A stretch of 64,000 bases of DNA from a candidate division TM6 bacterium GW2011_GWF2_28_16 (GTDB lineage: Bacteria; Patescibacteriota; Microgenomatia; UBA1400; PJMF01). Positions 1-43,557 of this stretch are shown here, piece by piece. The DNA is taken from contig CP011212.1 of the NCBI GenBank assembly GCA_001029715.1, positions 769,066-833,065 of the forward strand, read 5' to 3'. Positions within the stretch are counted from its first letter, which is position 1; each line of letters begins with the position of its first letter. Below the pieces are notes generated by a model, which saw nothing but the letters and a program-made list of their open reading frames with translations, did not search any database and had not been told where the DNA came from. The position numbers and the translations under genes are program-made.

Positions 1-441
1 GCTGAATTAACGGATAAAAATAGCTTGCGTTTTGCTCTTGGTGTTGGCTCTCCAGAGAACATCGTTCGTCTCTTCTTTATGGGTTATCAATTTTTTGATT
101 GCGTCCTACCAACTAGAGATGCTCGCCATCAAAGACTCTACATTTTTAAAATCAATCCAAAAATTTTAGACCGCAAAACTCTCGAAAAAATGACTGCAGA
201 AAATCGTCTTGATGAAGTCTTTGGACATCTTTATATTGGCAAAGGCCAATTCGACAGTTCAAACGAAGCGATTAGCGATTTTTGCGATTGCCCAACTTGC
301 CAAAAAACCGCTGGAACACCTCAAGTTAGCAAGGCCTATCTCCATCATCTTTTCAAAATCGGCGACGGCAGTGCTTTTCGCTTGGCAAGTTTACATAATT
401 TGCGAACCTATAGTCGATTAATGGAAGTTTTGCGTCACTAA
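1..441 (+). CDS. tgt: queuine tRNA-ribosyltransferase, C-terminal fragment; the reading frame is open from nt 1, so the gene starts before the window
   Basis: 'FDCVLPTRDAR' active-site region and zinc motif 'CDCPTC...YLHHL' typical of the Tgt C-terminus. No stop codon in frame from position 1. Confidence 0.7.
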   Translation, partial: AELTDKNSLRFALGVGSPENIVRLFFMGYQFFDCVLPTRDARHQRLYIFKINPKILDRKTLEKMTAENRLDEVFGHLYIGKGQFDSSNEAISDFCDCPTCQKTAGTPQVSKAYLHHLFKIGDGSAFRLASLHNLRTYSRLMEVLRH

Positions 442-1702: not shown

Positions 1703-3939
1703 ATTTTCTCCTGTAATTTAATTCTTTTTAATCGCAGCGCATTTAAAACTACCGATACACTTGAAAAGGCCATTGTTCCACCAGCAATGGCTGGACTAAG
1801 TAAAATTCCAAAAAAAGGATATAAGACTCCGGCTGCCACAGGTATGCCAACAATATTGTAGAAAAACGCCCAAAAGAGATTTTGCTTGATCGTTCTCATA
1901 GTAGCTTTTGATAAAACAAAAGCTTCTGGCAATTTAGAAATTCGCCCTCCAAGTAATGTAATGCCAGCGGACTCTATAGCGACATCTGTACCTGTCCCCA
2001 TGGCAATGCCTACTTCTGCTGTCGCTAAAGCTGGAGCATCATTAATACCATCGCCAACCATTGCTACTTTGTAGCCTTTCATTTGGAACTTTTTAATTTC
2101 ATTAGCCTTATCTACTGGTAAAACTTCAGCGATTACTTGATCAACTCCAACTTGATCAGCAATATATTGAGCAGTTCTTTTATTATCTCCAGTTAGCATG
2201 GCCACCTTAATGCCATGCTTATGCAGTAAATCAACTGCTAACCGCGCATCATCTTTAATAGTATCTGCAATAGCAATATAAGCGAGGATTTCTTTACTAT
2301 CCATCAAAATAATTGGCGTCTTACCTTTGGAAGTAAATGAGTCAATAATTTTATTATCAACTTCTAGAACCAAGTCTTCCACTAATTTGAGATTCCCAGC
2401 AAAATATTTTTTGCCATTTATTGTTCCACTTAAACCCTTACCTTCTATTGCAACAAAATCTTCGATTTTTTCTGGTTCTATTTTTTGTTGTCTAGCTTTT
2501 TCTACTATAGCCAAAGCCAATGGATGCTCTGAATGGTTCTCTAGAGAGAATAATAGTTGTAGTATTTTCGATTGAATCCTATCTCCTAAAGGTAGAATGT
2601 CGGTTACTTCTGGCTTACCTTTAGTAAGGGTGCCTGTTTTATCCATCACTATAAAATCCACTGAATTTAATTTTTCTAAATTCTCAGCATTCTTGATTAG
2701 AATGCCATTTTGAGCTGCCTTGCCAACTCCCACAATCACAGCTATCGGCGTTGCTAAACCCATGGCACAGGGACAAGCAATCACAAGAACACCTACAAAA
2801 TTGATAATTCCTAAAGTTAGCGCTTGAGAGAAAGTCATAAACTGCGAACCGATGATAATCCAAAGCAACAAAACCACTATGGAAAAAATTAAAACAATTG
2901 GTACGAATACGGCCGAAACACGGTCTGCCAATCTCTCAATAGGAGCTTTAGAAGCTTGAGCCTCTTCTACCATTTTAATGATTTGAGATAAAACGGTAGC
3001 ACTCCCAACCTGAGTGGCGCGGATCTGCAACGAACCCTGTTTGTTAATTGTTGCTCCAATAACAACATCGCCAACTTTTTTATCAACAGGTAATGATTCA
3101 CCAGTAAGCATCGATTCATCAAATGAAGAACTACCCTCAATAATTTCACCGTCAACGGCAACTTTTTGACCTGGTTTAATGATCAAAATGTCACCTACTT
3201 TGACTTGTTCAATCGGGATCTCTATTTGCTTGCCATTTTTTAGTACAATGGCACTTTTTGCCTGAAGGCCAAGTAACTTCTCTATCGCTTCGCCAGTTTT
3301 AAGCTTGGAACGGGCTTCTAAATATTTGCCAAGGGTAATAAATCCAATCACTACAATAGTTACATCATAATAAGTATGACTTGTGTTCAGATAAGGAGCG
3401 AGCGAAGTAGCAAAAATTGAAACAATAAAACTGTAAACAAATGCCACCGTTGTTCCAATACCTACCAAAGTATCCATGTTGGCAACGCGGTATTTAATAA
3501 ATCGCCAAACACCCTGCAAGTATGGCTCGCCAATGACAAAAAGCGTGTAGGTAGCAAAAAGTGGAAATAAGCGATTAAATAATTCAAGATTCCAGAACAT
3601 CGCCAAAATACTAAATAACATAAATGGAAGAACTATCTGAAAATGTTTTTTAAGCCTAGATAATTCTTTGAGTTTTCTATCATTGGAAGTTTCACCTGAT
3701 AAAATTGGAGTCATCTCATGACTTATGAGCGAATAGCCCAGCTTATCTATTTCTTTATTCATAGCTCCAATAGAAGTTCTATGAGGATCAAAAGTAACTT
3801 TGGCTTTTTGTGTACCATAGTTAACTGCAAGTTTTTCTACACCATCGAGTTTTCCTAACTTTTTCTGAATAATGCTGGCGCAAGATGCGCAATGCATGCC
3901 TGTTATTTCTAAAAATTTTGTTTGATTAACTTTTGGCAT
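1699..3939 (-). CDS. copA: copper-translocating P1B-type ATPase
   Basis: N-terminal HMA 'GMHCASCAS'; transmembrane 'CPC' motif ([11 protein letters not shown]); phosphorylation site 'DKTGTLT'; hinge '[10 protein letters not shown]'. The track ORF extends to 4071 but overlaps the regulator gene. Start placed at the internal Met ('[17 protein letters not shown]'), codon at 3937-3939. Confidence 0.9.
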
Positions 3940-4411
3940 ATTTTTTTGGATTTTCTTGAAACTTCTTGAGACAACCACTAGCACAAAAATAATAATCATG
4001 ATCTTTGTGTTTAGTACTGTAATTGGCCGTTTTAGGTGATAAACGCATCTTGCAAACCGGATCGTGAACAAGAGGAAGTAAATCTTTCATTGCCAAAGTT
4101 AATTCATCAGCTATTTCTAACCCTCGATTTTGATCAATTAACACTTCGCGAAGTAAATCACTTGCTTTAATTATTTTTGGATCAGCCAATTTATATATAA
4201 TCTGCTTGCCTTCTCTTTTAGCAACAACTATGCCAGCATCGCGAAGTAACATTAAATGTTGACTAATATTAGCTTGTGGTAAATCAAGCATTTCATAAAT
4301 ATCAGAAACACAGAGCTCTTGCTCTCTCAACAAATTAACAATTTCAAGTCTTCTAGGATGAGCAAGTGCCTTAAGTAAATCAGCGTGAAGTGCAAACATT
4401 TGTCCATACAT
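3926..4411 (-). CDS. ArsR/SmtB-family transcriptional repressor fused to a C-terminal YHS/TRASH-like metal-binding domain
   Basis: Winged-helix core ('[13 protein letters not shown]...[28 protein letters not shown]') and C-terminal '[12 protein letters not shown]' YHS-type motif. Divergently and closely placed relative to the cop genes. Confidence 0.65.
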
Positions 4412-31224: not shown

Positions 31225-31533
31225 TTAATAAGTCCAAGCCGTGAGGCTTGAGGAAATTTTTTCTTCCTCAAGCAGCGCTAGCCACAGGCTTACCCTTTCT
31301 AGGGGTAAGCCGTACTTCTCTGAAAAAACTTGCAGATTTGAATCCTGCATTTTTCCAGAGTGATAAGAGTAGTTGCAAAATACTTGCCTGTTTTTTCTAA
31401 CCAAAAACTCAACTGCTCCGGTTTTTAACTCGGTATCGTAAGATACCTTGTATTCGACTTCCGTTCCTAAAGCTACAGTTAATATAAACACTTCTAACCT
31501 CTCCTCTTCCTGAACTAAATTAAGGTTCTCCAA
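31225..31533 (-). CDS. hypothetical small protein (module gene A', paralog of 33075-33353)
   Basis: 102 aa. Shares the C-terminal region 'LPLERVSLWLALLEE' with the paralog's 'LVLSDVSAWLSVVDN', and the same terminator sequence at its 3' end. Confidence 0.45.
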   Translation of the reverse strand: MENLNLVQEEERLEVFILTVALGTEVEYKVSYDTELKTGAVEFLVRKNRQVFCNYSYHSGKMQDSNLQVFSEKYGLPLERVSLWLALLEEEKISSSLTAWTY

Positions 31534-31622
31534 TGTTATTTATCTCCAAATCAGCGCGTGGCCGATTATTCGATAAATAATTTAAGGGGTATATTATATC
31601 AAGATGTACTAAAAAAGTCAAT

Positions 31623-31633
31623 GTTATAGGATA
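31623..31633. promoter_or_regulatory. GTTATAGGATA core, copy 1 (with conserved flank AAAAAGTCAATGTTATAGGATA)
   Basis: The 11-mer recurs at 33459-33469, 61617-61627 and 61659-61669. Here it lies in the divergent intergenic region between the A' gene and the papain-like gene. Confidence 0.45.
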
Positions 31634-31690
31634 GTCACAATTAAATTAAAGATGGCTATCAAAAAAATATTTTCATATATAATCTAGCCA

Positions 31691-32608
31691 ATGAACACGA
31701 ATATAGAAACACACCTTGCAAATAATATTGGTAAAGATGTCGTTGGACTTAATCAGATGGTAAATCACGAAGTGCAAGAGAGTGACTTTCTTGCTGCGGT
31801 GGATGCCGCTCCAGCTATGCAAAAACTTTTTTCCGAAATTGATCCAAGCCTTCTTTTGTCCAAAGAATTAAATAAGTTTATAGAAGTTGAAAAAGAAATG
31901 CTTGGCAAAATAATTTGTCTTCCCACTACCATCTTGATGGCAATCAGACACCTGAAAAAAGAATCTAAATCTCTAACCCTCTCAGAATTTTATGAATTAG
32001 GAATTTATGCTCACACAAATGACCTCCATTCAGAAAATGGTGCTATTGAAAAAGGATTTCCTTCTTTTCATAGAAATGGCTTAGACACCTATCTTCGTTA
32101 TGCTTTAGAATTTGCTAAAATCAATGGTTTGGGAGGTGGAATTATCACTAATTTTTCAAATCTAGATTTTATAAGAAAAGTAACTAATAACGGAGTTGTA
32201 ATCTTGTCGGTTGATAACCTCTTTATTCCAAAAGTAATGAACACCGATATTGACCCTTCAACATTCAAGCCATCTAGACATGCAGAGTTAGTTCACGGCT
32301 TCTCAGAGAAAAATCTTTTAATAAGTGACGTCACCAATTCTAGAAATGGAACTACCTGGAATACGAGAAACAAATTTGTTCCGCAAACCGAAATAGAAAA
32401 ATATTTAACTTGTCCAAGGCTAAATGACACTTTCACTAGAGCAATTATTCTCACAAAAAATGATTTAGATTGGGACAAAATTACAGAAAAAATTGCAGAA
32501 GATGGGAACATCGAAAAACCGAATTACAATCCAATGCTGTCACCATTTTTTAATAAGGGAATAGATGCAACTCTCAAAGCAATGCGTCCAAATAGCTATT
32601 TAGATTAA
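31691..32608 (+). CDS. hypothetical protein with a putative papain-fold (peptidase C39-like) cysteine peptidase domain
   Basis: Candidate catalytic Cys in 'GKIICLPTTILMAI' (N-cap of a helix). Downstream 'RHAELVHGFSEKNLLISDV' resembles the C39 H-x-V-V-L-x-G-Y...I-x-D block. Confidence 0.35.
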   Translation: MNTNIETHLANNIGKDVVGLNQMVNHEVQESDFLAAVDAAPAMQKLFSEIDPSLLLSKELNKFIEVEKEMLGKIICLPTTILMAIRHLKKESKSLTLSEFYELGIYAHTNDLHSENGAIEKGFPSFHRNGLDTYLRYALEFAKINGLGGGIITNFSNLDFIRKVTNNGVVILSVDNLFIPKVMNTDIDPSTFKPSRHAELVHGFSEKNLLISDVTNSRNGTTWNTRNKFVPQTEIEKYLTCPRLNDTFTRAIILTKNDLDWDKITEKIAEDGNIEKPNYNPMLSPFFNKGIDATLKAMRPNSYLD

Positions 32609-32919
32609 ACGAGATACGAGTGCTTAGTATTCCAAGATTTAAGATATTCTTCTTTACTAGCGCCCCATTCTGGACCTACTATTTCAGAAACATCTTCAAT
32701 GTCGTTGGGATCAACTAATGTGTGAAGAACTGCATTGGCTAATATTTTGAGGATTTTATCGTAAGCTCGATATTTTTCTTCAAATGAAGTTTGCTCATTT
32801 AACATTAGTGCAACAAGCTCATCGTCTGCACCATATTTTTTTGCAATTTCCAATAATCTTTCTGCGCTTACAACTTCAACATTTTGGTGTTGATTAAGAA
32901 CTTCTAGGTTTTTAAACAT
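32605..32919 (-). CDS. hypothetical small protein (module gene B', paralog of 33491-33826)
   Basis: 'ERLLEIAKKYGADDELVALMLNEQTSFEEKYRAYDKILKILANAV' aligns with the paralog's 'ERQLEVSRKYGVPEEVIATVLDKNASDEDKDKAFGKILEIIGSAI'. Confidence 0.45.
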   Translation of the reverse strand: MFKNLEVLNQHQNVEVVSAERLLEIAKKYGADDELVALMLNEQTSFEEKYRAYDKILKILANAVLHTLVDPNDIEDVSEIVGPEWGASKEEYLKSWNTKHSYLV

Positions 32920-33045
32920 TGTTAAAATCTTTTTTTAAAGGGGCAGCAAATAATGGCGATTATTATAGCACTATTGTTTGTTTTATCAAAAAAACGCTTG
33001 TATATAGATGTTTTAGGGGTAATTTATTTTTTTAGAGAAAAGAAA

Positions 33046-33068
33046 AGAGCCGGGTTTTAACCGGCTCT
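33046..33068 (-). terminator. rho-independent terminator hairpin (AGAGCCGG/CCGGCTCT) downstream of gene 33075-33353
   Basis: 8-bp GC stem followed by T-rich sequence on the minus strand; near-identical to the hairpin at 31195-31217. Confidence 0.55.
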
Positions 33069-33074
33069 AAATCC

Positions 33075-33353
33075 TTAATTTTTTCTTTCCCAAACGGTAG
33101 ACTTCTCAAAATTTGAGTTGTTATCTACCACTGATAGCCATGCGCTGACATCGCTTAAAACCAGGCCTAGATCTTCTCTAATCTCATTGAGTGAAAATTT
33201 CTCCACAGAAATAGCTTCTGTAGTAGCAACTTCCATGCCGTTAATGTACAAGGAAATAATAATTTCCTTGTTTTGTCTGTCATAAATGACAAACAGATCT
33301 ACACCATTCCTTAAGCATATCTTCAAGTCATACATTGTCTTCTTTTCCTCCAA
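33075..33353 (-). CDS. hypothetical small protein (module gene A)
   Basis: 92-aa ORF, paralogous to 31225-31533. Confidence 0.45.
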   Translation of the reverse strand: MEEKKTMYDLKICLRNGVDLFVIYDRQNKEIIISLYINGMEVATTEAISVEKFSLNEIREDLGLVLSDVSAWLSVVDNNSNFEKSTVWERKN

Positions 33354-33458
33354 AAATTAAGGTTCTTCAAATTTTTTGCCGCCAAGTCAACAGATAGTCG
33401 ACTCTTAAACAAATAATTTGAGAACTGGATTATACCAAAAAATACCTAGAAAATCAAT

Positions 33459-33469
33459 GTTATAGGATA
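33459..33469. promoter_or_regulatory. GTTATAGGATA core, copy 2 (flank GAAAATCAATGTTATAGGATA)
   Basis: Lies between module genes A and B. About 40 bp of flank is similar to copy 1 ('attata.caa...tac.taaaaaa.tcaatgttataggata'). Confidence 0.45.
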
Positions 33470-33490
33470 TTATGTTTACAGATTTCTTAA

Positions 33491-33826
33491 CTAAATTCTA
33501 TTACCAATGATAGCATTTGCTATTTTATAGTCTTCGACATCGACTTTTTGAGCATAAATAGCACTACCTATAATTTCAAGAATTTTTCCGAATGCTTTGT
33601 CTTTATCTTCATCTGAAGCATTTTTATCCAATACAGTTGCGATGACTTCTTCAGGAACGCCATACTTCCTGGAAACTTCCAATTGCCTTTCTGGAGTTAT
33701 TTCTTCGTCCATAATTTTTTGGACATTATCAGACCATGGTCTTTCTTTTGGTTCAACTTCACTATCAACTTCAGCACCTGTAATAGATTCTGAAATATTT
33801 GCTTCTGGATTTTTTGGCATTACCAA
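33491..33826 (-). CDS. hypothetical small protein (module gene B)
   Basis: 111-aa ORF, paralogous to 32605-32919. Confidence 0.45.
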   Translation of the reverse strand: MVMPKNPEANISESITGAEVDSEVEPKERPWSDNVQKIMDEEITPERQLEVSRKYGVPEEVIATVLDKNASDEDKDKAFGKILEIIGSAIYAQKVDVEDYKIANAIIGNRI

Positions 33827-33935
33827 TCCTTTTAATAAGGCAGTAAATAATTATTGGCATTATAACACTGCAAAATTTTTATCAAAAAATTTTAAAAAGC
33901 ATCTTGTCCAAAAATTTTCTGCTATCATCTTAATA

Positions 33936-34448
33936 GTGAAAAAATTTTTGAAAATAATACAAAGCACTGCTTTCAGAAAAACCATTGTGGTATTAGGCAG
34001 TTTTCTAGCAGTTGCAAGTATTTTAATTTCCATAAATCCAGAACCTTTTTTAAAAACTGGCTATTGGGGTGTTTTTCTGTATGGAATGTTAGGACCAGTC
34101 ACCTTAATTATTCCTGTAATGTCACAGCATTTAAATTTGGTTTTACTGTCAGCTGCAGCTGCCACTGGAGTGGTCGTAAACGATACTCTCGCATATATCG
34201 TTGGGAGAAATGCTGATGCGTTTATTCAAAAAAGTAAAAAAGTCTTGCTCGTAGAAAAATGGGTGAACAAATATGGTGTCTTCGCTCTGTTTCTTATCTC
34301 AATCTCACCTCTCCCCTATGATTTTGTTGGATTGATTGTCGGATATCTAGATCTATCATTTAAAAAATACGTCATACCTTTATTTCTGGGTAAATTTATA
34401 AGATTTATTCTAGTTGGCTTAGGTACAAATTTTATTTTAGGATGGTGA
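33936..34448 (+). CDS. DedA/VTT-domain-like small polytopic membrane protein (start uncertain)
   Basis: The track ORF starts at 33597 but its first ~110 codons run antisense to paralog-supported gene B. An in-frame GTG at 33936 gives 'MKKFLKIIQS...' with 4 hydrophobic helices and a 'GVVVNDTLAYIVGR' motif. Confidence 0.4.
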   Translation: MKKFLKIIQSTAFRKTIVVLGSFLAVASILISINPEPFLKTGYWGVFLYGMLGPVTLIIPVMSQHLNLVLLSAAAATGVVVNDTLAYIVGRNADAFIQKSKKVLLVEKWVNKYGVFALFLISISPLPYDFVGLIVGYLDLSFKKYVIPLFLGKFIRFILVGLGTNFILGW

Positions 34449-34469
34449 GGGGCTATGGTTTATTAGAAA

Positions 34470-35198
34470 CTATAGTCTAGATTGCTCTTGCTGTATTTTT
34501 TTTATCAAATCAGGAAAATATCCATACTGTTTATTGTTTTTATCATACATTCTTTGCAGATTATCAATTCCCTCATTAATAGGTCTTATTTTTTGACCAA
34601 AGACTGATAAGTAAACTTCCCCATCCTGATCCTTAAAAATAAAATACGCATGCCTATCTAAAAGATTTAAACCTTCAAATACATTCCTTATATGTCTCTT
34701 AGTATTAGAAAACATTAACAGTCTAACTTCAGTACCAGGAAAATAAATTTTAGAAATTGTACTAATAAAGGTTGCATACTCTATACAATTAACAGTTTCT
34801 TTAAATGGCTTGGTCATAAAAGACTCATCTTTAGTAAACAAACTCATGGTAAAGTTCAAGTTATTGCTAGCATTTTCAAATGAAGCTAGAAGGTTTCCTT
34901 TTGACCTCGCTGAGTTTTGATCAGTTGTAAAATCCACAAACTCTCTTAAGCTTTTGTAATAAGGTTTGCTATTTTCATCCAGCATGAATTTATCGACTGC
35001 TTCTTTAACTTTTTCATCAGCAAATTTATAAACACCATCGTCACAACTGGAAATTTTTATTGCTCTCCCAATACTATTAACCAGAGTAGTATTAATTGGT
35101 CCAAGATGACCTTCAACGGTAGCACCGGCGGTAGCTTTATCAGTCAAACCTAATTTGTGTAGTCTATTTCCTAATTCTGCAAAAACGATATTCGGCAC
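34470..35198 (-). CDS. hypothetical protein (242 aa)
   Basis: Clean ORF adjacent to the tRNA-Trp scar; no family recognised. Confidence 0.45.
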   Translation of the reverse strand: MPNIVFAELGNRLHKLGLTDKATAGATVEGHLGPINTTLVNSIGRAIKISSCDDGVYKFADEKVKEAVDKFMLDENSKPYYKSLREFVDFTTDQNSARSKGNLLASFENASNNLNFTMSLFTKDESFMTKPFKETVNCIEYATFISTISKIYFPGTEVRLLMFSNTKRHIRNVFEGLNLLDRHAYFIFKDQDGEVYLSVFGQKIRPINEGIDNLQRMYDKNNKQYGYFPDLIKKIQQEQSRL

Positions 35199-35223
35199 AA
35201 AATAAATATATCATAAAAGAAAA

Positions 35224-35241
35224 AGCAGGGCGGGAAGGAAT
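35224..35241 (-). repeat. 18-nt direct duplicate of the tRNA-Trp 3' end (T-loop 3' half + acceptor 3' strand), att-like scar
   Basis: 'gcagggcgggaaggaatc' is identical to 35399-35416 inside the tRNA-Trp gene, in the same orientation, 157 bp away. Confidence 0.6.
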
Positions 35242-35367
35242 CCACGACTCGCCTATCTGTATTTTCTGGAAGATAGCTCGCTGCATTACCCAGGCTCGCT
35301 TCACTCGCTTGGCGGCAGAACTACTGCTTCGCAAGGACGTCTCTTCATTACCACAACAAGTATAAAA

Positions 35368-35392
35368 AAATCCAGCGTTGCTGGAATTTTTT
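35368..35392. terminator. bidirectional hairpin terminator (A-run, TCCAGC/GCTGGA stem, T-run)
   Basis: 'aaaaaaatccagcgttgctggaatttttt', immediately 3' of tRNA-Trp. Confidence 0.5.
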
Positions 35393-35399
35393 ATACTTG

Positions 35400-35470
35400 C
35401 AGGGCGGGAAGGAATCGAACCTTCATCAAGGGTTTTGGAGACCCCGATTCTACCGTTGAAATACCGCCCT
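35400..35470 (-). tRNA. tRNA-Trp (anticodon CCA)
   Basis: Reverse complement 'AGGGCGG-TA-TTTCAACGGTAGAA-TC-GGGGT-CTCCAAA-ACCCT-TGAT-GAAGG-TTCGATT-CCTTC-CCGCCCT-G'. 7-bp acceptor stem, anticodon loop CU-CCA-AA, T-loop TTCGATT. Confidence 0.8.
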
Positions 35471-35630
35471 TTGTTAAATTTTTAGAGTTTATGAAATCAA
35501 CTCTCGAAAGCCAATTATAATAATCATTAGCCAATAAAGCCAGGGGATTTTAAAATTTCAACTAAAAAGCAAGAAAAAACCAAAAAGACTAGTTCTCCCC
35601 CAACCTTTCAAAAACTGTTACACTAATTAA

Positions 35631-37115
35631 ATGCAAGACCAAGACATCGCTCAAGATCTAAAAAGGATTTATCAAGAAGACAAGAAACTACTCGAGGAAA
35701 CTCAAATCCCAATCATCACTGTTTCTGCTTCTTTTAGAGAAGATTTAAAAGGTTTGCATCACCAAAAAGAAGAAGACAAAAGCACTGACATCGTGCTTTC
35801 CCGTGCCCATTATTCCATGGCGCTTGGAGTGGCCATGCAAGCTTGGGGTGAAAAGATTGATCCTAAAAAAGCTTGGTTAGTTGACAGCACCAACTACGTT
35901 AACAATGAAGATTTCAAAGGCGTACAGCTAACTAACATTATTGGTAAAATCATTGCTCGCTGGCCAATGCTTAAAACTTTTAAAGACGTAGTCGATAAAT
36001 TTGGTCGTTCTAAAATGCCAATTCTCGATAATGTTACTCCTCCTACTCTTTACTTAGGCGCTGGTGTTAAAAAAACTATCTTGTCCTTTCACATTGTGAC
36101 CGGCAATATCTTAGCAGCAGAAGGTAAAAAAGTTATTCAAATGATTACCGATCCACATGTGAGAAGCGATTATTTAGAAAATGCCCATCGCAAAAACATG
36201 CAGTTTTTGGTTTTTGATGAAGCCACCAAAGCAGATTTTTGGAGAGTTGCCAAAGAAATTGGTAAAAGAATTCCTAAGGAGCAAGTTGCTAATAAAGTTA
36301 TTGTCACTGGCCCACCAATTGATCCAAGGATTGTCGACTGTAATAAAAGTAAAAATATTTGGAACAAAGATCAAGCTCTTAAGGTTTGTCTTACCACTGG
36401 CGGGCTAGGCACTAACAAAACTGAAATTAAAGAAATTTTGGAGCAACTTTTGCCAGAACTAAAAAAGCAAGCTACTGATCAAAAAACAGATTTGCCAACC
36501 ACAGAATTAATTTTTTATGCTGGCACGCACAGCGATCATAAAGATATGGCAGTCCGAATCGCTAAAGAGAACAATCTTTTGTATCAAATAATCAGTCCAA
36601 AAGATCCAGCTCACTTTGGTATTAATGACAAAATTGAAACCACTCCACATAAAAAAACCGAAACAACTAGAGCTAAATTTAGAATCATTTATCATCCACA
36701 GATCGTTGATGCTAATGAATTGCTAATTCAAAAAGGCTTTCCTTGGGCCGACGTTTTTATTAGTAAACCATCTGGAGATATGGCTTATGACGCCGTTGTC
36801 TCTGGAGCTGCTCTGCTTACTCTTAAAGAATGGGGTGAATGGGAATTTAACGTTAGAGCAGTTTTTGAAAAAAATGGTACCACTAAGCAAGCTCAAACAG
36901 ACCAGATTGTCAAACAATTAATAGAAATTACTCAAAGCAATGGCTCCACTTTTGAAAGTAATAAAGTTATTGGATCTAAACTACCAAGTCCAAATATAAA
37001 GGATGAAGCTCAATCTTCCTGGTTGGAAAAAGCCATGCAAAATGCGAAAAAACTAGATAAAGACTTCTATCAGGGTGCTAAAAACATCTTGAAAGCTGTC
37101 AAAGAAAGTAATTAA
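35631..37115 (+). CDS. putative GT-B glycosyltransferase (MurG / MGDG-synthase / GT28-like fold)
   Basis: 494 aa. 'LTTGGLG' after a Rossmann-like stretch and a C-terminal 'ELL...KPSGDMAYDAVVSGAALL' segment resembling the GT28 C-domain. Assignment is tentative. Confidence 0.35.
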   Translation: MQDQDIAQDLKRIYQEDKKLLEETQIPIITVSASFREDLKGLHHQKEEDKSTDIVLSRAHYSMALGVAMQAWGEKIDPKKAWLVDSTNYVNNEDFKGVQLTNIIGKIIARWPMLKTFKDVVDKFGRSKMPILDNVTPPTLYLGAGVKKTILSFHIVTGNILAAEGKKVIQMITDPHVRSDYLENAHRKNMQFLVFDEATKADFWRVAKEIGKRIPKEQVANKVIVTGPPIDPRIVDCNKSKNIWNKDQALKVCLTTGGLGTNKTEIKEILEQLLPELKKQATDQKTDLPTTELIFYAGTHSDHKDMAVRIAKENNLLYQIISPKDPAHFGINDKIETTPHKKTETTRAKFRIIYHPQIVDANELLIQKGFPWADVFISKPSGDMAYDAVVSGAALLTLKEWGEWEFNVRAVFEKNGTTKQAQTDQIVKQLIEITQSNGSTFESNKVIGSKLPSPNIKDEAQSSWLEKAMQNAKKLDKDFYQGAKNILKAVKESN

Positions 37116-37119
37116 AAAA

Positions 37120-37323
37120 TTACTTTAACTTTTTCATCATCTTGTGAGAGGTGTGTTTGCGACAGACTTTGCAGTATTTATTAATAGGAAAGCTACTCTC
37201 TCCTGAAATTTGCTTCTTGAGGGTTTCATTGTTTTTGTTGTATTCACTTACGTAACCAAAAGCATTACAAACACTACATTGTAAACCGATTAATTGTCTT
37301 GGACCTTTTTTCTTACTTGCCAT
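37120..37323 (-). CDS. rpmG: 50S ribosomal protein L33
   Basis: Zinc ribbon 'CSVC...CKVC' and overall L33 pattern. Follows the tRNA array on the same strand. Confidence 0.8.
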   Translation of the reverse strand: MASKKKGPRQLIGLQCSVCNAFGYVSEYNKNNETLKKQISGESSFPINKYCKVCRKHTSHKMMKKLK

Positions 37324-37394
37324 AGATTTGATATTTTAGCACATTTTCTTTTTAATTTAAGTGTCAGCTCTTGATCGAGCATTTTTGCTAAAAA

Positions 37395-37469
37395 TGAGCC
37401 ACCTCTGGGACTCGAACCCAGGACCTACTGTTTACAAAACAGTTGCTCTACCAACTGAGCTAAGGGGGC
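37395..37469 (-). tRNA. tRNA-Thr (anticodon UGU)
   Basis: Reverse complement 'GCCCCCT-TA-GCTC-AGTTGGTA-GAGC-A-ACTGT-TTTGTAA-ACAGT-AGGTC-CTGGG-TTCGAGT-CCCAG-AGGTGGC-T'. One C/T mismatch in the acceptor stem. Confidence 0.8.
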
Positions 37470-37474
37470 GATAG

Positions 37475-37556
37475 TGCCAAGGGAAGGATTCGAACCTACG
37501 GAGGCTAGGCCAGCAGTTTTACAGACTGCCCTCGTTGACCACTTGAGTACCTTGGC
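37475..37556 (-). tRNA. tRNA-Tyr (anticodon GUA), type II with long variable arm
   Basis: Reverse complement 'GCCAAGG-TA-CTC-AAGTGGTCAAC-GAG-G-GCAGT-CTGTAAA-ACTGC-TGGCCTAGCCTCC-GTAGG-TTCGAAT-CCTTC-CCTTGGC-A'. Perfect acceptor stem. Confidence 0.8.
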
Positions 37557-37563
37557 GTCTCTA

Positions 37564-37638
37564 TGAGCCTTCGTCGGGGATCGAACCCGAGACCTCAGTC
37601 TTACCAAGACTGCGCTCTACCAACTGAGCTACAAAGGC
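37564..37638 (-). tRNA. tRNA-Thr (anticodon GGU)
   Basis: Reverse complement 'GCCTTTG-TA-GCTC-AGTTGGTA-GAGC-G-CAGTC-TTGGTAA-GACTG-AGGTC-TCGGG-TTCGATC-CCCGA-CGAAGGC-T'. One G-U pair in the acceptor stem. Confidence 0.8.
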
Positions 37639-37653
37639 AAAAGGACTTTGAGT

Positions 37654-37682
37654 ATTATATTTCGGACCCTGTCTTTTTGCAA
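37654..37682 (-). promoter_or_regulatory. sigma70-like promoter for the tRNA-Thr/Tyr/Thr-rpmG operon
   Basis: Minus strand reads 'TTGCAA-(17 nt)-TATAAT' and ends 15 nt before the tRNA 5' end. Confidence 0.45.
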
Positions 37683-37695
37683 AACAAAAAGCAGC

Positions 37696-37760
37696 TGGTA
37701 CGAAAGATGCAAAGCGAATTTCGGACAATGTGGTACGAAAGATGCAAAGCGAATTTCGGA
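37696..37760. repeat. two tandem 30-nt direct repeats (TGGTACGAAAGATGCAAAGCGAATTTCGGA), period 35
   Basis: Identical copies at 37696-37725 and 37731-37760. They lie at about -40 to -110 relative to the tRNA operon promoter and share 'TCCGAAAT' and 'TTGCA' with it. Confidence 0.7.
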
Positions 37761-37783
37761 GAAAATACAGACGAGAAAACACT

Positions 37784-37933
37784 CCACTTCCCTTTGCAGG
37801 AAAGCAAGCCTCTTTCCCCGGGAAAAACCAGGTGGTTAAGAAGATCTCATTTCCACGGAAATAAGATACTCCTTTATCCATAAAAGAGCTGTTGAGGAAA
37901 AACATCGCTTAGCTTTCCTGCAAAGGGAAGTGG
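37784..37933. repeat. 22-bp perfect inverted repeat (CCACTTCCCTTTGCAGGAAAGC ... GCTTTCCTGCAAAGGGAAGTGG) enclosing 106 nt; candidate structured RNA or regulatory element
   Basis: Arms at 37784-37805 and 37912-37933 read directly. The interior contains small palindromes ('ccccggg', 'tttccacggaaa'). Confidence 0.6.
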
Positions 37934-38057
37934 TATTAATGTGCTAAATACAATTTTAGAAGCTAACAAACAAAAAACAAAGCTGTTTTTGACACAGAAA
38001 AATTGCTATAATGGAATCTTCCACATTTTGAAAAATAGATGACGCCAAACTCGACTT

Positions 38058-38963
38058 TTAACCAGCGATCTCCTCTACCCATTCCTTGACTTTGTGACCG
38101 TATTTTTCGTTTTCGATCACAAATTTTAAATGAGCTTTGAAATAATTTTCTGGATCACCAGTGGTCATCCACTTACTGTCGTTTTTAACCACTAAAACTT
38201 TCTTTCCAGATTGCTTGAGTTTTTCGATTGCGTCCACTGTCCAAAGTTCGCCATCCTTACCAGTGCTATTAATTGTCAAATAGTCAAAAATAGCTGGTGT
38301 TAGTAAATAGCGACCATAGGAAGCTAAATTGCTAGGCGCCTCTTCCACGGATGGCTTTTCGACAATATTAACTAAAAAATTTTCTTGACCCTCATGATAA
38401 CTGCCATCTTGTAAAGAAACTATTCCATATTTAGAAACCTCTCCTTTCTGGATCTCCTCAGCCATGATGATGGCAGCAGCGTCATTATATTGATGATAGT
38501 TGTCAACTAAAGTTTTAGCTGCACCTGGGCTACCAAAAACCACATCATCACTATAAATAGCTAAGAAAGCATCTTCGCCCTCTACAAAAGCCTTGGCTGA
38601 AGCAATTGGTGAACCATTGCCGTAAGGCAAACTCAAGTCCTGAGTGATTACGGTAATTTTTGGATAATCTAACACTCGCTGTACAGATTCGTAGCGATCT
38701 TCCTTGCCCTGGGCAGCTAACTGTTTACGAATGCGGTTAACATTATTGTTAAAGTAGTCTTCATAAATTGGTTTTCCCTCAGGAGTAGCAACAATGATAA
38801 TTTCTTCAATCCCTGCTTCAACACACTCTTCAATCACGAATTGCATGATGGGACGATTGCCCATTGGCAACATCGCTTTTGGCACAGTTTTAGCGATTGG
38901 CAAATAACGACTAGCAAAACCAGCGTCGGTGATAATTGCTTTACGAACCAATTTTTCTGACAT
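38058..38963 (-). CDS. galU: UTP--glucose-1-phosphate uridylyltransferase-like sugar nucleotidyltransferase
   Basis: 'AIITDAGFASRYLPIAKTVPKAMLPMGNRPIMQF' matches the GxGTRxLPxTKxxPKEMLP N-terminal signature. Confidence 0.7.
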   Translation of the reverse strand: MSEKLVRKAIITDAGFASRYLPIAKTVPKAMLPMGNRPIMQFVIEECVEAGIEEIIIVATPEGKPIYEDYFNNNVNRIRKQLAAQGKEDRYESVQRVLDYPKITVITQDLSLPYGNGSPIASAKAFVEGEDAFLAIYSDDVVFGSPGAAKTLVDNYHQYNDAAAIIMAEEIQKGEVSKYGIVSLQDGSYHEGQENFLVNIVEKPSVEEAPSNLASYGRYLLTPAIFDYLTINSTGKDGELWTVDAIEKLKQSGKKVLVVKNDSKWMTTGDPENYFKAHLKFVIENEKYGHKVKEWVEEIAG

Positions 38964-39038
38964 AAAAATTCACCTTTCTAAATAAGTTCTAAAAGTATAA
39001 CATAACAAAGGACTTGACCTAAGAGTGAGAAGTCAGTT

Positions 39039-39416
39039 ATGCTTGAGATAATGCCTTCAAAAAAAATCACTAAACAAAAAAAGAACGAAATTGAATCAAA
39101 TCTCATTCTCTTTGGTCTTTTGCTCGTTTTAATTCTCTCCGTAATTACTTTTTGGCACATTAGCTACAAAAAAAACCAGACAAATAGTGCTGAAACTTCC
39201 GCTATAAACCAGGAACTGGCGCAAAAAGCCGACATTGATCAAGATGGAAATATTGATGAAAAAGATGCTAAACTGATTAAAGAGGCTTTTTTGAAGAGTG
39301 ATGTTGAATCACTTAAGGCTGATCTAAACCAAGATAATAAAGTCGATGCTAAAGACTTCTCACTGTTCAATAAAATCTTTAACTTAAAAGAGAAAGAACA
39401 AAATGACTCCAAATAA
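39039..39416 (+). CDS. small membrane-anchored protein with two dockerin-like calcium-binding repeats
   Basis: N-terminal helix 'LILFGLLLVLILSVITFW'; 'DIDQDGNIDEKDAKLIKEAF' and 'DLNQDNKVDAKDFSLFNKIF' resemble dockerin type I D-x-D-x-D-G-x-(I/V)-D repeats. Confidence 0.45.
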   Translation: MLEIMPSKKITKQKKNEIESNLILFGLLLVLILSVITFWHISYKKNQTNSAETSAINQELAQKADIDQDGNIDEKDAKLIKEAFLKSDVESLKADLNQDNKVDAKDFSLFNKIFNLKEKEQNDSK

Positions 39417-41331
39417 AAAGAAAAATCACCTCGCCATTGTCGGGTTGTTTATTGTTGTTTTCATTATGTCTATTTCCTTGTTAGCAGTCATGTTTCTTAA
39501 GAAACCTGTTTCAGAATTGAGTTTAGACACTAGGAAAGAAGCTATGGTTGATAGTGGTTTAGTTGAATTGGATACTTATCCTTTTAATCAAAGTACTCTG
39601 AAGGTCAAAGAAGAGCAAAAAATTAATCTTCAAATCAATACCAAGGATAAATCAGTCGACGCTGTGGAACTCATTTTTGAAGTCATCGCCGATGAGGGTT
39701 TATTAGATAAAAGTAAAATTAAGCTTACTGGTACCATTCCAGAAGAACTAGAAGTTGGCAAACAAGAAATCATCGATAGTGTTTGTTCCAAAGATTGTTA
39801 TACGGTTACCCTTCTCCTCAATATTAAAGATTCAAACCAAGCTTTTGCCACTCATGATCAAATGGCTACCATTTCACAACTTAGCTTTACTCCTCAAAAA
39901 GAAGGTAGTCTAAAAATTAAAATCAGCCAAGATAGCACTGCTATTGAACACGAAAGCAGCAGCGACGTGTTACAAAAACCCTCTGTACTAGACTTTCAAT
40001 ATTATGTAACTAACAATGGCATTGATCCTTCTCAATGTTATTACCAATATACTTCCTGGGGAGATTGCAATAATGGTTGGCAAACCAGACAGTATTCTGT
40101 CGAACCAGACAACTGTTATTGGTATGAAAAAGAAACTCTCAAAGAATTAAGTCAAAAATGCGTTGATAGCGATGAGGTCAGCGCCAATAATAGCTATTTT
40201 TATCTTTATTCAACTAACAATTGTTTTAATCAGGCAACCACTGGTGAAAATTTTTATATCATTTGGAATGATGATAAATATGACAATGTAACATGGGTCG
40301 ATGTCAGCACTAGTAATAGCTTCAGCAATTTTTATCATAAAAAAGTTGAAGGCAACATTGATCAAACCAATGGAGACTGGTTGATGATTAATGCCAAAGG
40401 TTTTACAGATGCTACTGATGACAGAGGAACATTAATTTTTGAGCCAGATGAGGATTATTATTTCCGTCTATACAGCACCGATAATGACGGACAACACATC
40501 TCCTCAGTTCATTATTATGTAGCTTATTGTAGCGGAGACCAAAGTATCTATAAAAACTGTAATGATGCTTGTGGTGCTAACAGCGACCAAGGTAAAAGTT
40601 GTGCTCCAGGAATGACTTGTTATGAGGGCAGTTGTCGTAATGAAAACAACCCTAGTGATTCTAGTTGTTTACCGATTTTAGGAACTCAATTAAGTAATCA
40701 AAGTTGTAATCAATATTGTGCCAGTAATAATGATTGCTCCGCTGGCTTAAGTTGTTATTGGAATAGTTGTCGCAATCCATTAAATCTAAGTAGTACTTCT
40801 TGTTCCGTCACAACTACTTATTCATCTGCAACCACTAGCAAAAGCACTCTCTTACCCAGTGAAGCTTATGATCTAAGTACTTACAGTTGTAATCATGGTT
40901 GTAATAATAATCGTGACTGTGAAGCCGATATGCGTTGTTATAAAGGTAGCTGTCGCTTAGCAGATGATCCAGAAAATATTGCTTGCGTAGTCAGTGCGAC
41001 TGAATTAAACAGCAAAGACGCAAGTTCTAGCAGTAGTGCAGCTAAAATTGTTAAACCTAGCACCACTCCAATTACTGACACTAACAGCAAAGACACTCAA
41101 AGTGGACTGAACAAATTTTTGTCTAGTTTTTCCTGGCAATGGTTGGCTATTGCTGGGGTGATCTTACTTGTCGCGATTTCCCTGATTATTAGCTCAATTG
41201 CCAAAGCCAAAAAAGATCCCTGGACTAATCATATTAAAATGATCAACGAGAATGATATTCCTCAAAAACCAGAGCCAGAAAAAACAACTGAAACCATAAA
41301 AATTCCAGAAGATAAACCTTTGCAATTATAA
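39403..41331 (+). CDS. cell-surface protein with three Cys-rich repeats and a C-terminal membrane anchor
   Basis: N-terminal hydrophobic segment. Three repeats of C-x5/6-C-Y-x-G/N-S-C-R-x7-C ('CAPGMTCYEGSCRN', 'CSAGLSCYWNSCRN', 'CEADMRCYKGSCRL'). C-terminal helix 'WLAIAGVILLVAISLIISSIAKAKKD'. Overlaps the upstream gene by 14 nt. Confidence 0.55.
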   Translation: MTPNKKKNHLAIVGLFIVVFIMSISLLAVMFLKKPVSELSLDTRKEAMVDSGLVELDTYPFNQSTLKVKEEQKINLQINTKDKSVDAVELIFEVIADEGLLDKSKIKLTGTIPEELEVGKQEIIDSVCSKDCYTVTLLLNIKDSNQAFATHDQMATISQLSFTPQKEGSLKIKISQDSTAIEHESSSDVLQKPSVLDFQYYVTNNGIDPSQCYYQYTSWGDCNNGWQTRQYSVEPDNCYWYEKETLKELSQKCVDSDEVSANNSYFYLYSTNNCFNQATTGENFYIIWNDDKYDNVTWVDVSTSNSFSNFYHKKVEGNIDQTNGDWLMINAKGFTDATDDRGTLIFEPDEDYYFRLYSTDNDGQHISSVHYYVAYCSGDQSIYKNCNDACGANSDQGKSCAPGMTCYEGSCRNENNPSDSSCLPILGTQLSNQSCNQYCASNNDCSAGLSCYWNSCRNPLNLSSTSCSVTTTYSSATTSKSTLLPSEAYDLSTYSCNHGCNNNRDCEADMRCYKGSCRLADDPENIACVVSATELNSKDASSSSSAAKIVKPSTTPITDTNSKDTQSGLNKFLSSFSWQWLAIAGVILLVAISLIISSIAKAKKDPWTNHIKMINENDIPQKPEPEKTTETIKIPEDKPLQL

Positions 41332-41399
41332 ATTTATAAGCCAACTTGAAAAAAAACCCATCTACGGATAAAATTCGAAGGACAAGATAGATCATTTTT

Positions 41400-41582
41400 A
41401 TGTTTACAAAAATTAAAAAATACTTTAGAGAAGTTATCACAGAGCTCAAGCAAACCTCTTGGCCAAGTAAAAACGATACTAAGAATATGACCCTGCTTGT
41501 ATTTTTAGTAGCTACTCTACTCGCCCTGTATCTTGGAGGGCTCGATTTTCTCCTACAAAAAATCATGGGAATTCTGATATAA
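41400..41582 (+). CDS. secE: preprotein translocase subunit SecE
   Basis: 60 aa with a single C-terminal transmembrane helix, immediately upstream of nusG. Confidence 0.7.
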   Translation: MFTKIKKYFREVITELKQTSWPSKNDTKNMTLLVFLVATLLALYLGGLDFLLQKIMGILI

Positions 41583-41620
41583 TATCCTCCTTTGTAAAAG
41601 GAATCACCAAAAAAGGAATT

Positions 41621-42241
41621 ATGACTGACCAAATGCAAATACCAGAAGTGCCAGAAGTCCAAGAAGTAAGAGTTCAATCTCCTAACTTAGTGAACATCTC
41701 TGATGTCGACAACAAGAAAGCTCGTTGGTACGTAGTGCACGTTTATTCTGGACATGAAAAGAAGATCGCTGAGGCCTTGCGCCAACGTGCTCAAACCTTG
41801 CATTTAACTGATAAAATTATTCAAGTTTTAATTCCTACTCAAGATAAAATTCAAATTCGTCGTGGCATGCGCAAAACCGTTAGTGAAAAGATTTTCCCAG
41901 GATATATGTTGGTTAAATTGGAAATGGCTGACGATGTTTGGTTGGCAGTGCGCACCACTGATGGTGTGACCGGCTTTGTTGGTATGAGTAGTAAACCTAC
42001 TCCACTCCCAAAAAGCGAAGTTGAAGCAATCATGAAATATACTGAACAATCTGGCGAAGCTTCTTACAAAGCTGACTTTGTCGATGGCGAAGCCGTCAAA
42101 GTGGTTGAAGGACCATTCAATGACTTCTTAGGCAGTGTTGACAAGATTGACGAAGAAAAAGGCAAAGTTACGGTCTTGCTCAACATCTTCGGTAGAGAAA
42201 CTCCAGTGGAATTGGATTTCTTGCAAATTAAGAAAGTTTAA
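41621..42241 (+). CDS. nusG: transcription termination/antitermination factor NusG (with N-terminal extension)
   Basis: NGN domain 'WYVVHVYSGHEKKIAEAL' and C-terminal KOW 'GEAVKVVEGPFNDFLGSV'. Confidence 0.85.
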   Translation: MTDQMQIPEVPEVQEVRVQSPNLVNISDVDNKKARWYVVHVYSGHEKKIAEALRQRAQTLHLTDKIIQVLIPTQDKIQIRRGMRKTVSEKIFPGYMLVKLEMADDVWLAVRTTDGVTGFVGMSSKPTPLPKSEVEAIMKYTEQSGEASYKADFVDGEAVKVVEGPFNDFLGSVDKIDEEKGKVTVLLNIFGRETPVELDFLQIKKV

Positions 42242-42336
42242 AACAAAAACCATTGCGGTCGGCATAGGGACGCCGAGCTTCTCCGCATGAAGGTTAATTA
42301 AAAATAGAAAACAAATGAAAATAAAGAAAGTCGTGT

Positions 42337-42759
42337 ATGGCAAAAAAAATTAAATCAGTTCTAAAACTCAATCTACCAGCTGGCACAGCAACTCCAGCAC
42401 CTCCAGTCGGTCCTATTTTAGGTCAGGCAGGTATCAACATGATGGATTTCTTGAAACAATATAATGCTGCTACTGCTGATCAAAAAGGTCAGGTTATTCC
42501 AGCAGAAATCACTGTTTTTGAGAACAATTCTTTTACTTTTGTTTTGAAATTGCCTCCAGTCTCTGACTTGATCAAGCAAACCCTCAAAATGAAAGCTGGT
42601 AGTTCTACTCCAGGCAAAGATAATAAAGCTAAAATCACTATGGATCAAATCAGAGCAATTGCTGAAAAGAAATTGCCAGACATGAATACTGAAAATATTG
42701 ATTCTGCTATGCAGAGTATTATTGGTTCAGCTAGATCCATGGGTGTTGAAGTCGTTTAA
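42337..42759 (+). CDS. rplK: 50S ribosomal protein L11
   Basis: 'KLNLPAGTATPAPPVGPILGQAGINMMDF' L11 N-terminal domain signature. Confidence 0.9.
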   Translation: MAKKIKSVLKLNLPAGTATPAPPVGPILGQAGINMMDFLKQYNAATADQKGQVIPAEITVFENNSFTFVLKLPPVSDLIKQTLKMKAGSSTPGKDNKAKITMDQIRAIAEKKLPDMNTENIDSAMQSIIGSARSMGVEVV

Positions 42760-42828
42760 TATTAAAAAATAAAATATAGTGGGAGGCTCAAGCTTTACTC
42801 AAGCCGTTCGCACCACCAGAAAGGAAAT

Positions 42829-43557
42829 ATGGGAAGCAAAAAAAATGTCGACATGTCCGCAACTGAGACTGAAATCAAAGTCGTCGAGGCAACTGAAGTA
42901 AAAGAAGAGACTGATTCTCAAGGCGAAGCAAAAGTCGAGAAAAAAATCACTAAAGCCAAAAAAGTTCGTGGCAAAAAATATCAAGCTGTCCGCTCTCAAT
43001 TGGATAAAAGCAAATTTTACACTGCCAAAGAAGCAGTTGAATTGGTGAAGAAACTTTCTTACACCAAATTTGTTGGTTCAGTTGAAGCCCACATCGTGGT
43101 TAGAGAAATTGGCGATAGTGTCAACATCGCTCTTCCTCATTCCACTGGTAAATCTGTCAAAGTCACCGTCGTTGACGCTCAAGTTTTAAGCGACATCGAA
43201 GCTGGCAAAATTGACTTTGATATTTTGGTCGCCGCTCCTGAATTTATGCCAAAATTGGCTAGATTCGCTAAAGTTCTTGGACCAAAAGGCCTCATGCCAA
43301 ATCCAAAAAGTGGCACCCTGACCCCAAATCCAGAACTTAAGAAAAAAGAGTTGGAAGCCGGTAAATTCAGCCTTAAAACTGAGAAAAAAGCTCCTCTCAT
43401 GCATTTGATTATCGGCAAAACCGATATGAAAAGTGCCGACTTATTGGCAAACATCGAAGCTTTAGTCAAAGCTTTGAAGGGCAAAATTCTTAAATTAAGT
43501 ATTGCTGCCAGTATGAGTCCTGGAGTTAAAGTTTTAGTTGAAGAAAGTGAAGAATAA
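42829..43557 (+). CDS. rplA: 50S ribosomal protein L1
   Basis: Overall L1 pattern ('KKYQAV...KFVGSVEAHIV', 'APEFMPKLARFAKVLGPKGLMPNPKSGT'). Confidence 0.9.
   Translation: MGSKKNVDMSATETEIKVVEATEVKEETDSQGEAKVEKKITKAKKVRGKKYQAVRSQLDKSKFYTAKEAVELVKKLSYTKFVGSVEAHIVVREIGDSVNIALPHSTGKSVKVTVVDAQVLSDIEAGKIDFDILVAAPEFMPKLARFAKVLGPKGLMPNPKSGTLTPNPELKKKELEAGKFSLKTEKKAPLMHLIIGKTDMKSADLLANIEALVKALKGKILKLSIAASMSPGVKVLVEESEE

Follow-up and report, generated by a model that had tools for sequence, protein, structure and literature searches.

How does the 3' end of a tRNA gene come to lie twice, co-oriented and only 156 bp apart, in the genome of a CPR (Microgenomates-like) bacterium, and what is the DNA caught between the two copies? 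The locus in question is a gene for tRNA-Trp(CCA) in the window, by which we mean the whole 64-kb stretch of DNA that was analysed. The reading that we favour, with a probability of roughly 0.55, is that an att-flanked, integrase-less and CIME-like mini-cassette with a conserved module was inserted into the T-loop region of this gene by site-specific recombination.

The 18-mer GCAGGGCGGGAAGGAATC occurs twice on the plus strand of the window (Table 1), the proximal copy A and the distal copy B being identical at 18/18 positions and sharing the same orientation, and further copies with up to three mismatches are absent from the 64 kb. The preliminary description had reported this exact, co-oriented repeat of the tRNA-Trp 3' end, which stands, but its first copy (given as 35224-35241) has to be moved by one base to 35225-35242, and the interval that it put at 157 bp measures 156 bp, with a start-to-start spacing of 174 bp. 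On the tRNA strand the repeat reads GATTCCTTCCCGCCCTGC and is made up of four nucleotides of the T-loop, five of the T-stem, seven of the acceptor stem, the discriminator G and one C; the identity ends abruptly on either side of these 18 nt, without any extension. Such a block, running from the T-loop to the gene end, belongs to what we take to be the T-loop sublocation class of Williams 2002, and the T-loop is reportedly a canonical sublocation of integrase crossover. Copy A forms the end of an intact gene in which the terminal CCA is not encoded. Copy B lacks a 5' partner for its T-stem, and neither ARAGORN nor Rfam calls a tRNA there; readings of copy B as a tmRNA, a permuted tRNA or a tRNA-like element were rejected on the grounds that a T-stem partner, an acceptor partner and an ARAGORN call are all missing. 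To the left of 35225 the flank reads TTTTTCTTTTATG on the minus strand. Elsewhere in the window (2884-2976, minus strand) ARAGORN reports a 93-nt 'tRNA-Asn' with the anticodon ATT, which lies inside a long ORF (1702-4086), is not confirmed by the Rfam tRNA model and is probably a false positive.

The shortness of the repeat, taken alone, might suggest a chance match or an assembly artefact, an explanation that can be dismissed for practical purposes. None of 100 dinucleotide-preserving shuffles contained two matches to the 18-mer, and positions 35150-35640 are 100% identical in 10 independent assemblies that derive from several samples and several assemblers (JGI, ENA, Logan, plus GCA_000991725.1 from Rifle groundwater), so that the repeat is real rather than a product of assembly. 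The same architecture moreover recurs in independently sampled relatives. All 10 assemblies of the population represent the occupied form of the site.

Table 1. Coordinates of the tRNA-Trp locus in the window and of associated features in related loci (prefixed with the handle of the locus)
Feature	Position	Strand	Basis or context
tRNA-Trp(CCA), intact	35399..35470	-	ARAGORN; Rfam tRNA model 59.7 bits, full length (Rfam bounds 35400-35470)
Copy A, proximal att-like repeat, functional tRNA-Trp 3' end	35399..35416	-	ARAGORN and exact repeat match
Copy B, distal att-like repeat, displaced non-functional tRNA-Trp 3' fragment, T-loop GATT through discriminator +1	35225..35242	-	Exact 18/18 match to 35399-35416
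Terminator T2	35359..35398	both	Long A/T-flanked hairpin, TCCAGC/GCTGGA stem extended by A-run/T-run, U-tract each way
GC-rich conserved non-coding module, ~116 nt	35243..35358	+	GC content; homologues in L013, L017, L011, L026
Large serine recombinase genes	L024:8208-10004, L025:1483-3243, L020:3-692		At tRNA-Trp 3' end; outside the window, in relatives
Motif2	L011:5081-5106, L014:2314-2341, L017:681-707, L024:1337-1363, L013:~174-215		Downstream of cassette or tRNA
IS630/HTH_7-like ORF	L012:5258-5962, L017:1420-2073 (split in two), L020:713-1366, L025:3240-3881		

The interval between the copies stands out by its base composition, as the preliminary description had remarked: the GC content of the interval and module is 0.44-0.52, against ~0.26-0.35 in the surroundings and ~0.33 in the genome. 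Two parts can be distinguished. Directly 3' of the tRNA lies T2, which scores as an intrinsic terminator on both strands and whose inverted repeat (35357-35399; 20-nt arms, 95% complementary) is the dominant hairpin of the interval. The hairpin CTATCT...AGATAG, to which attention had been drawn earlier, is present in the window too, but relatives keep only part of it. The remainder is the module, which ends, ahead of the terminator hairpin, in the CA-rich and seemingly single-stranded motif ACCACAACA. Neither the 116-nt module nor the 156-bp interval holds a meaningful ORF. The ends of the cassette read CACGAC... and ...CCACAACA, and terminal inverted repeats were not found at them. MITEs are characterised by terminal inverted repeats and a short target duplication, and integron attC sites by RYYYAAC...GTTRRRY cores; the MITE reading was ruled out by the absence of the inverted repeats, and the attC reading was discarded because the ends do not fit these cores. 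Searches of Rfam 15 with the window, L011, L013 and L017, at the gathering threshold and at E-values up to 10, returned only the tRNA and terminator-hairpin noise, and likenesses to SRP, 6S and RNase P RNA that were judged by eye were dropped because no covariance model matched. A second copy of the module was found neither in the window nor in any fetched locus with nhmmer and a covariance model, which leaves five known copies. Another stretch of GC-richer non-coding DNA in the window (37640-38057), beside a tRNA-Thr/Tyr/Thr cluster, contains a 33-nt direct repeat (37696-37763; 97% identical, spacing 35) and has no Rfam match at the gathering threshold.

The loci of relatives were fetched through the syntenic 494-aa gene that adjoins the tRNA, complemented by one DNA-pattern scan of metagenomes, which produced one true match (L017) and two chance matches in GC-rich coding DNA (L018, L019). 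Homologues of the 494-aa protein that bear names, with the labels Woesebacteria and Pacebacteria, put the host of the window among Microgenomates-type CPR bacteria. Host relatedness was measured as the amino acid identity of the 494-aa neighbour protein, which delineates three groups: the window with L013 (its 95% relative) and L017 at 93-95%, L011 with L014 at 91%, and L026, L025 and L015 at 92-97%, with ~77-83% between groups. The contrast of occupied and empty sites, to which the preliminary description had looked, does exist among these loci. The site is occupied in five lineages (the window, L013, L017, L011 and L026), where a homologue of the module is found at the same place, and a truncated sixth, L012, keeps only approximately the last 30 nt of the module together with T2; across these lineages the recurring unit measures ~170-215 bp. 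In L015/L016 the site is empty: the tRNA-Trp gene is directly followed by another terminator, T1, and both repeat and module are absent. L014 lacks the cassette as well. The empty sites could be ancestral or the products of precise excision. In the alignment of the occupied sites the junction TC|CACGACTCGCC (..TC|CACGAC) is fixed in 5/5 lineages, the length of copy B is 18 nt in the window and L013, 14 nt in L017 and 8 nt in L011 and L026, and the DNA outside copy B is unlike in each of the five.

What copy B represents is best seen in L013, where the order on the plus strand is T1, copy B, module, T2 and tRNA. T1 and copy B of L013 align base for base, up to ..TC, with T1 and the tRNA 3' end of the empty sites in L015/L016, so that in copy B and T1 we have the original gene end and its native terminator, pushed ~173 bp aside. 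Two further lineages would fit a displaced fossil by their sequence. Copy B of L011, AAGGTGTC, agrees in its T-loop allele with the tRNA of L014, its clade-mate at 91% amino acid identity, and not with the working tRNA of L011, which has GGAATC; in L017 copy B still reads GGCGGG, and the acceptor stem of the working tRNA has become TCGG with a compensating change. In L013, L026 and L012, as in the window, the tRNA is followed by T2, which came with the inserted DNA. L011, L017 and L015/L016 have the unrelated T1 there; since the module of L011 and L017 is thus accompanied by T1 and not T2, either two variants of the cassette or later rearrangements are needed.

An intact tRNA followed by a co-oriented 3' fragment and then a terminator, the arrangement of L013, would equally be the end state of a tandem duplication of tRNA-Trp, in which unrelated DNA overwrote the downstream copy over the 5' two-thirds of its length and spared only the last 18 nt, and tRNA-Trp alleles have clearly been exchanged and replaced within the clade. 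We nevertheless consider this origin improbable. A second complete, or even more complete, tRNA-Trp was seen in no relative examined, and the boundary of the fragment falls within the T-loop, said to be a canonical place for integrases to cross over. Like the attP sites of islands, the DNA that separates the copies has a terminator of its own, and genuine recombinase islands are found at this very tRNA end (see below).

Insertion by site-specific recombination, our preferred reading, does not exhaust the history of the cassette, which has also moved between hosts. The window and L013 share 97% identity in the tRNA, 96% in the spacer from the tRNA to the neighbouring gene and 79% in the module (85% over aligned columns). 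L013 and L026, the neighbour proteins of which are 77% identical, have modules that are 93% identical. When these two loci are compared in sliding windows, values of at least 0.9 are reached only over the 3' part of the module, T2 and the tRNA, against 0.2-0.4 in the adjacent intergenic DNA, and the latter matches the clade-mate L015 at 0.95 in L026. Both L011 and L026 possess the whole tRNA of the window type, not merely its last 18 nt, together with the cassette, whereas in their clade-mates the cassette is missing and the tRNA alleles are different ones. To judge from these comparisons, the cassette has been exchanged horizontally between distant hosts and clades, apparently together with the tRNA. 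The presence of the whole window-type tRNA in L011 and L026 implies that homologous recombination of a larger segment contributed, and by the same token the inference of the crossover point is blurred.

The mobility of the unit bears on the question of whether the 156 bp are anything more than debris. The preliminary description had proposed that the interval may be a deletion remnant, and in its fullest form this would mean that a kb-sized, integrase-bearing island was internally deleted down to its att-adjacent arms, leaving a functionless, decaying scar. The att-type signature without an integrase fits such a course of events, and att-flanked remnants that arise from the decay of integrated elements are well described (PMC5704250). 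Among the five modules that of the window has diverged most and forms the weakest outer stem, as decay predicts, and the folding energies are ordinary. However, the same joint between module and terminator (CACCACAACA followed by the hairpin) is found in five lineages and in the truncated L012, and the cassette moved between host clades after it had reached its present size. Within the module three blocks, CCACGACTCGCC, TGCATTACCCAGG and CTTGGCGGCAGAAC, are invariant in the five lineages; these 13-14-nt blocks have been kept across hosts that are 77-80% identical in the adjacent protein, the bases between them are scrambled, and a hairpin shows compensatory changes. A unit that recurs in this way, with a terminator of its own and with exchange between distant hosts, lends no support to the proposal of a mere deletion remnant, and we regard plain decay as unlikely. 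By these sequence comparisons the module would instead be under purifying selection rather than decaying at random.

The hairpin just mentioned has the form CCAGGnnn/nnnCTTGG and shows three compensatory pairs, its inner pairing being UGC/GCA in L013, CGCU/AGCG in L017 and AUC/GAU in L026, and its loop, 3 nt at its shortest, reaches its greatest size in L011 as an expansion of ~50 nt that contains UUCG loops. RNAalifold combines it with an outer stem of 10 bp. Double changes occur at five pairs, and in the five sequences, from which the fold itself was derived, 89.7% of cells are paired as compared with 32-50% for slid partners. Several G-U pairs are invariant in the alignment, so that the fold works on the plus strand only. 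An RNA from the minus strand was rejected: the G-U pairs would turn into A-C mismatches, and the folding energies on that strand are worse than those of shuffles (z = +1.3 to +2.4). On the plus strand, too, the folding energy is not lower than that of shuffled controls (z = +1.13, -0.14, -0.07 and -1.04), and comparison of the lineages revealed no conserved promoter upstream of copy B. Because there are five sequences, with a fold drawn from these same sequences, ordinary z-scores and no promoter, we treat it as a tentative hypothesis, held at somewhat less than even odds, that the module may encode a small RNA on the plus strand, which would converge on the tRNA and end at the terminator shared with it. 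Alternatively, the module may be a folded DNA structure or a protein-binding site that is used in recombination.

A more radical version of the RNA hypothesis dispenses with recombination altogether. The module and copy B would then form an independent plus-strand small RNA gene that converges on tRNA-Trp, and the 18-mer would itself be functional, as part of a 5' hairpin (GGCGGG/CUCGCC), as an antisense to the tRNA 3' end, or both. The GC enrichment within an AT-rich genome would suit such a gene, as would the helices and compensatory pairs that fit the plus strand alone, the bidirectional terminator with its U-tract on the plus strand, the UUCG-type loops in the apical expansion of L011 and a 6-bp hairpin between copy B and the module in the window, L013 and L017. 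Its central premise is that the 18-mer is functional, yet the complementarity to the tRNA is not conserved, amounting to 18, 18, 14, 8 and 8 nt, and the copy in L017 differs, inside those 14 nt, at two positions from the 18-mer of its own tRNA. The 5' hairpin is impossible in L011 and L026, copy B of L013 is still joined to the native T1, as a displaced gene end would be, and a conserved promoter and an Rfam family were not found, with z-scores of about zero. It is therefore hard to credit that the repeat owes nothing to recombination.

That the 3' end of tRNA-Trp is a target of recombination in this clade is evident from islands of a different kind. Recombinase genes close to tRNA-Trp in relatives, which the preliminary description had suggested as something to look for, are found in L024, in L025 and probably in L020. 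In L024 a 598-aa large serine recombinase (LSR), which has Resolvase, Recombinase and Zn-ribbon domains, lies directly at the 3' end of tRNA-Trp and closes an island of ~8.6 kb that includes a gene with a TIR domain. L025 has a recombinase that is 84% identical to that of L024 in the same position, and a more distant, partial recombinase makes use of the same site probable for L020. The last ~22 codons of these recombinase ORFs are the antisense of the tRNA. With recombinase islands at the same tRNA end, tRNA-Trp is an integration hot spot in these genomes. Set against the statement in the Islander paper of 2014 that serine recombinases are not known to target tRNA genes (PMC4383910), the LSR islands at tRNA-Trp may be notable.

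At its far end the L024 island carries motif2, there GCAGGGACTAGTGAGGGATATTAGAAC, a degenerate sequence that resembles the tRNA end. Motif2, whose consensus is GCAGGG(G/A)TTGGTGAGGGATATTGGAAC, is situated where the variable region downstream of tRNA-Trp has its distal edge; in L017 the terminator T1 directly precedes it, and the window lacks it. It has the appearance of a 3' fragment of tRNA-Trp that was displaced earlier and has diverged, or else of an arm of an LSR attP site. The picture is one of apparent serial accretion at one tRNA, of the kind described for CIME/IME arrays (PMC5704250). Several relatives have an ORF of 213-234 aa with an IS630/HTH_7-like helix-turn-helix inserted in the stretch that separates tRNA-Trp from the 494-aa gene. 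Wherever this ORF occurs, the tRNA-Trp allele is markedly different, a pattern suggestive of another type of mobile unit, by which the entire tRNA gene is replaced.

Like the cassette, the LSR islands of L024 and L025 target the same gene end, regenerate the 3' part of the tRNA and leave a tRNA-end-like sequence, motif2, at their far end. They differ in that their junction shares only ~GCAGGG at the extreme 3' end, in that they have no similarity to the module and in that the window has no LSR. The preliminary description had stated that the window contains no integrase, and this is borne out: the 46 ORFs that were scanned with Pfam yielded no recombinase domain, and tblastn with the serine recombinases of the relatives matched only the antisense of the tRNA. 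A recombinase linked to the cassette was found in none of the five lineages. The search for a parent element was equally negative. Two module patterns and the 18-mer gave 0 matches each among viral contigs, scans of viral proteins with the LSR and with the 494-aa neighbour returned 0 relatives, and blastn against phages and plasmids left the cassette unmatched. A full-length parent element, phage or plasmid that carries the module was thus not found in viral contigs, phages, plasmids or one metagenome scan, the sole addition from the latter, L017, being another cassette without a recombinase. The designation of the locus as an integrase-type att scar is accordingly supported in part. Insertion into the 3' part of the tRNA is supported by the empty sites of L015/L016, the T1 attached to copy B in L013, the allele of copy B in L011 and the LSR islands; no integrase could be tied to the cassette, and for this reason its integrase-type nature is something that we infer.

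Among the ORFs that flank the locus PHROGs and Pfam revealed nothing phage-like or recombinase-like. Between an M50 peptidase gene and copy B (31225-35198) lies a variable island region with paralogous pairs of small ORFs (102/92 aa and 104/111 aa) and duplicated terminators, a C39-like peptidase, a VTT-domain protein and a 242-aa orphan, for which Pfam and PHROG gave no functional clues; relatives have Zip and MscL there instead. On the other side (35631-43554) the usual rpmG / tRNA-Trp / secE-nusG-rplK-rplA neighbourhood is broken up. L33 and tRNA-Trp are separated by the 494-aa gene, which is DUF6938-like; at a distance of ~6 kb, and on the strand opposite to that of the tRNA, lie nusG, accompanied by secE if the gene callers reported the latter, and rplK-rplA.

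How could the present arrangement have come about? In the reading that we prefer, very small foreign DNA would insert by site-specific recombination at the T-loop region of tRNA-Trp(CCA), and the 18-nt repeat would be the resulting duplication of the attL/attR type. The inserted unit would comprise 174 bp, in the order, on the minus strand, of a replacement for the last 18 nt of the tRNA, then T2 and then the module of ~116 nt. The replacement end would keep the tRNA gene intact and terminated, so that copy A would have been regenerated by the insert and come from the cassette, and the original 3' end would be displaced 174 bp downstream and survive as a functionless fossil, copy B. A unit that encodes no protein and no recombinase would be non-autonomous, a CIME-like mini-cassette that was mobilised in trans or else travelled with the tRNA through recombination. 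We infer the action of a site-specific recombinase in the initial insertion; it counts against this reading that a circle of 174 bp would be an implausible substrate for recombination.

The arrangement agrees in most respects with the signature by which the Islander approach maps islands in tRNA genes (tDNAs), an intact tDNA with a displaced 3' fragment, where the insert restores the gene end (PMC4383910). As in tDNA islands and prophages, an intact tDNA and a co-oriented displaced 3' fragment lie in one replicon, the insert restores the gene end and supplies a terminator (with the displaced end of L013 keeping T1), the block of identity begins in the T-loop and ends shortly beyond the 3' end, the empty site is present in relatives and the hot spot is used recurrently. 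Unlike such islands, the cassette has only 156 bp between the repeats, with neither integrase nor cargo genes, and its interior is a conserved non-coding module. The integrase (tyrosine recombinase) gene that Islander expects between tDNA and fragment is absent from these 156 non-coding base pairs.

Among known elements CIMEs come closest, being decayed ICEs or IMEs that have kept attL and attR and lost the genes for integration and transfer (PMC5704250). Here, too, two exact 18-nt repeats flank 156 bp that have no ORF and no integration or transfer genes, and in relatives copy B, cargo ORFs and motif2 form an array beside other island remnants at the same tRNA. The CIMEs that have been described are typically kb-sized relics from Firmicutes with recognisable gene remnants. 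The cassette differs from them in its size of ~174 bp, its lack of ORFs, its CPR (Microgenomates-like) host and its selectively conserved core. The module for its part, ~120 nt in length, GC-rich and with an irregular long hairpin of variable apex, resembles trans-acting small RNAs with a Rho-independent terminator and the GC-rich structured RNAs of AT-rich genomes, with which it also shares a conserved single-stranded CA-rich stretch followed by a terminator hairpin; it differs from them in having no Rfam match, no conserved promoter and no significant folding-energy signal.

From these likenesses a bolder proposal can be put together, which we offer as speculative and rather doubtful: an undescribed small RNA gene would travel as an ORF-less, att-flanked mini-cassette at the tRNA-Trp T-loop of CPR (Microgenomates-type) bacteria, its RNA being either the cargo or a targeting or guide molecule, and it would be mobilised in trans by recombinases that use the same hot spot.

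Att scars in tRNA genes are routine, and in this respect the locus contributes one more case, well resolved and from a group, the CPR bacteria, that has been little studied. What is modestly novel is that the module is conserved and has been exchanged horizontally, and that different elements have stacked up at one tRNA in a CPR clade. Should the module be neither an expressed RNA nor a recombination site, the locus would be a tidy scar that is useful for mapping island boundaries; if it is one or the other, the locus would represent a class of miniature integrative cassettes and, with them, a new non-coding element of the CPR.
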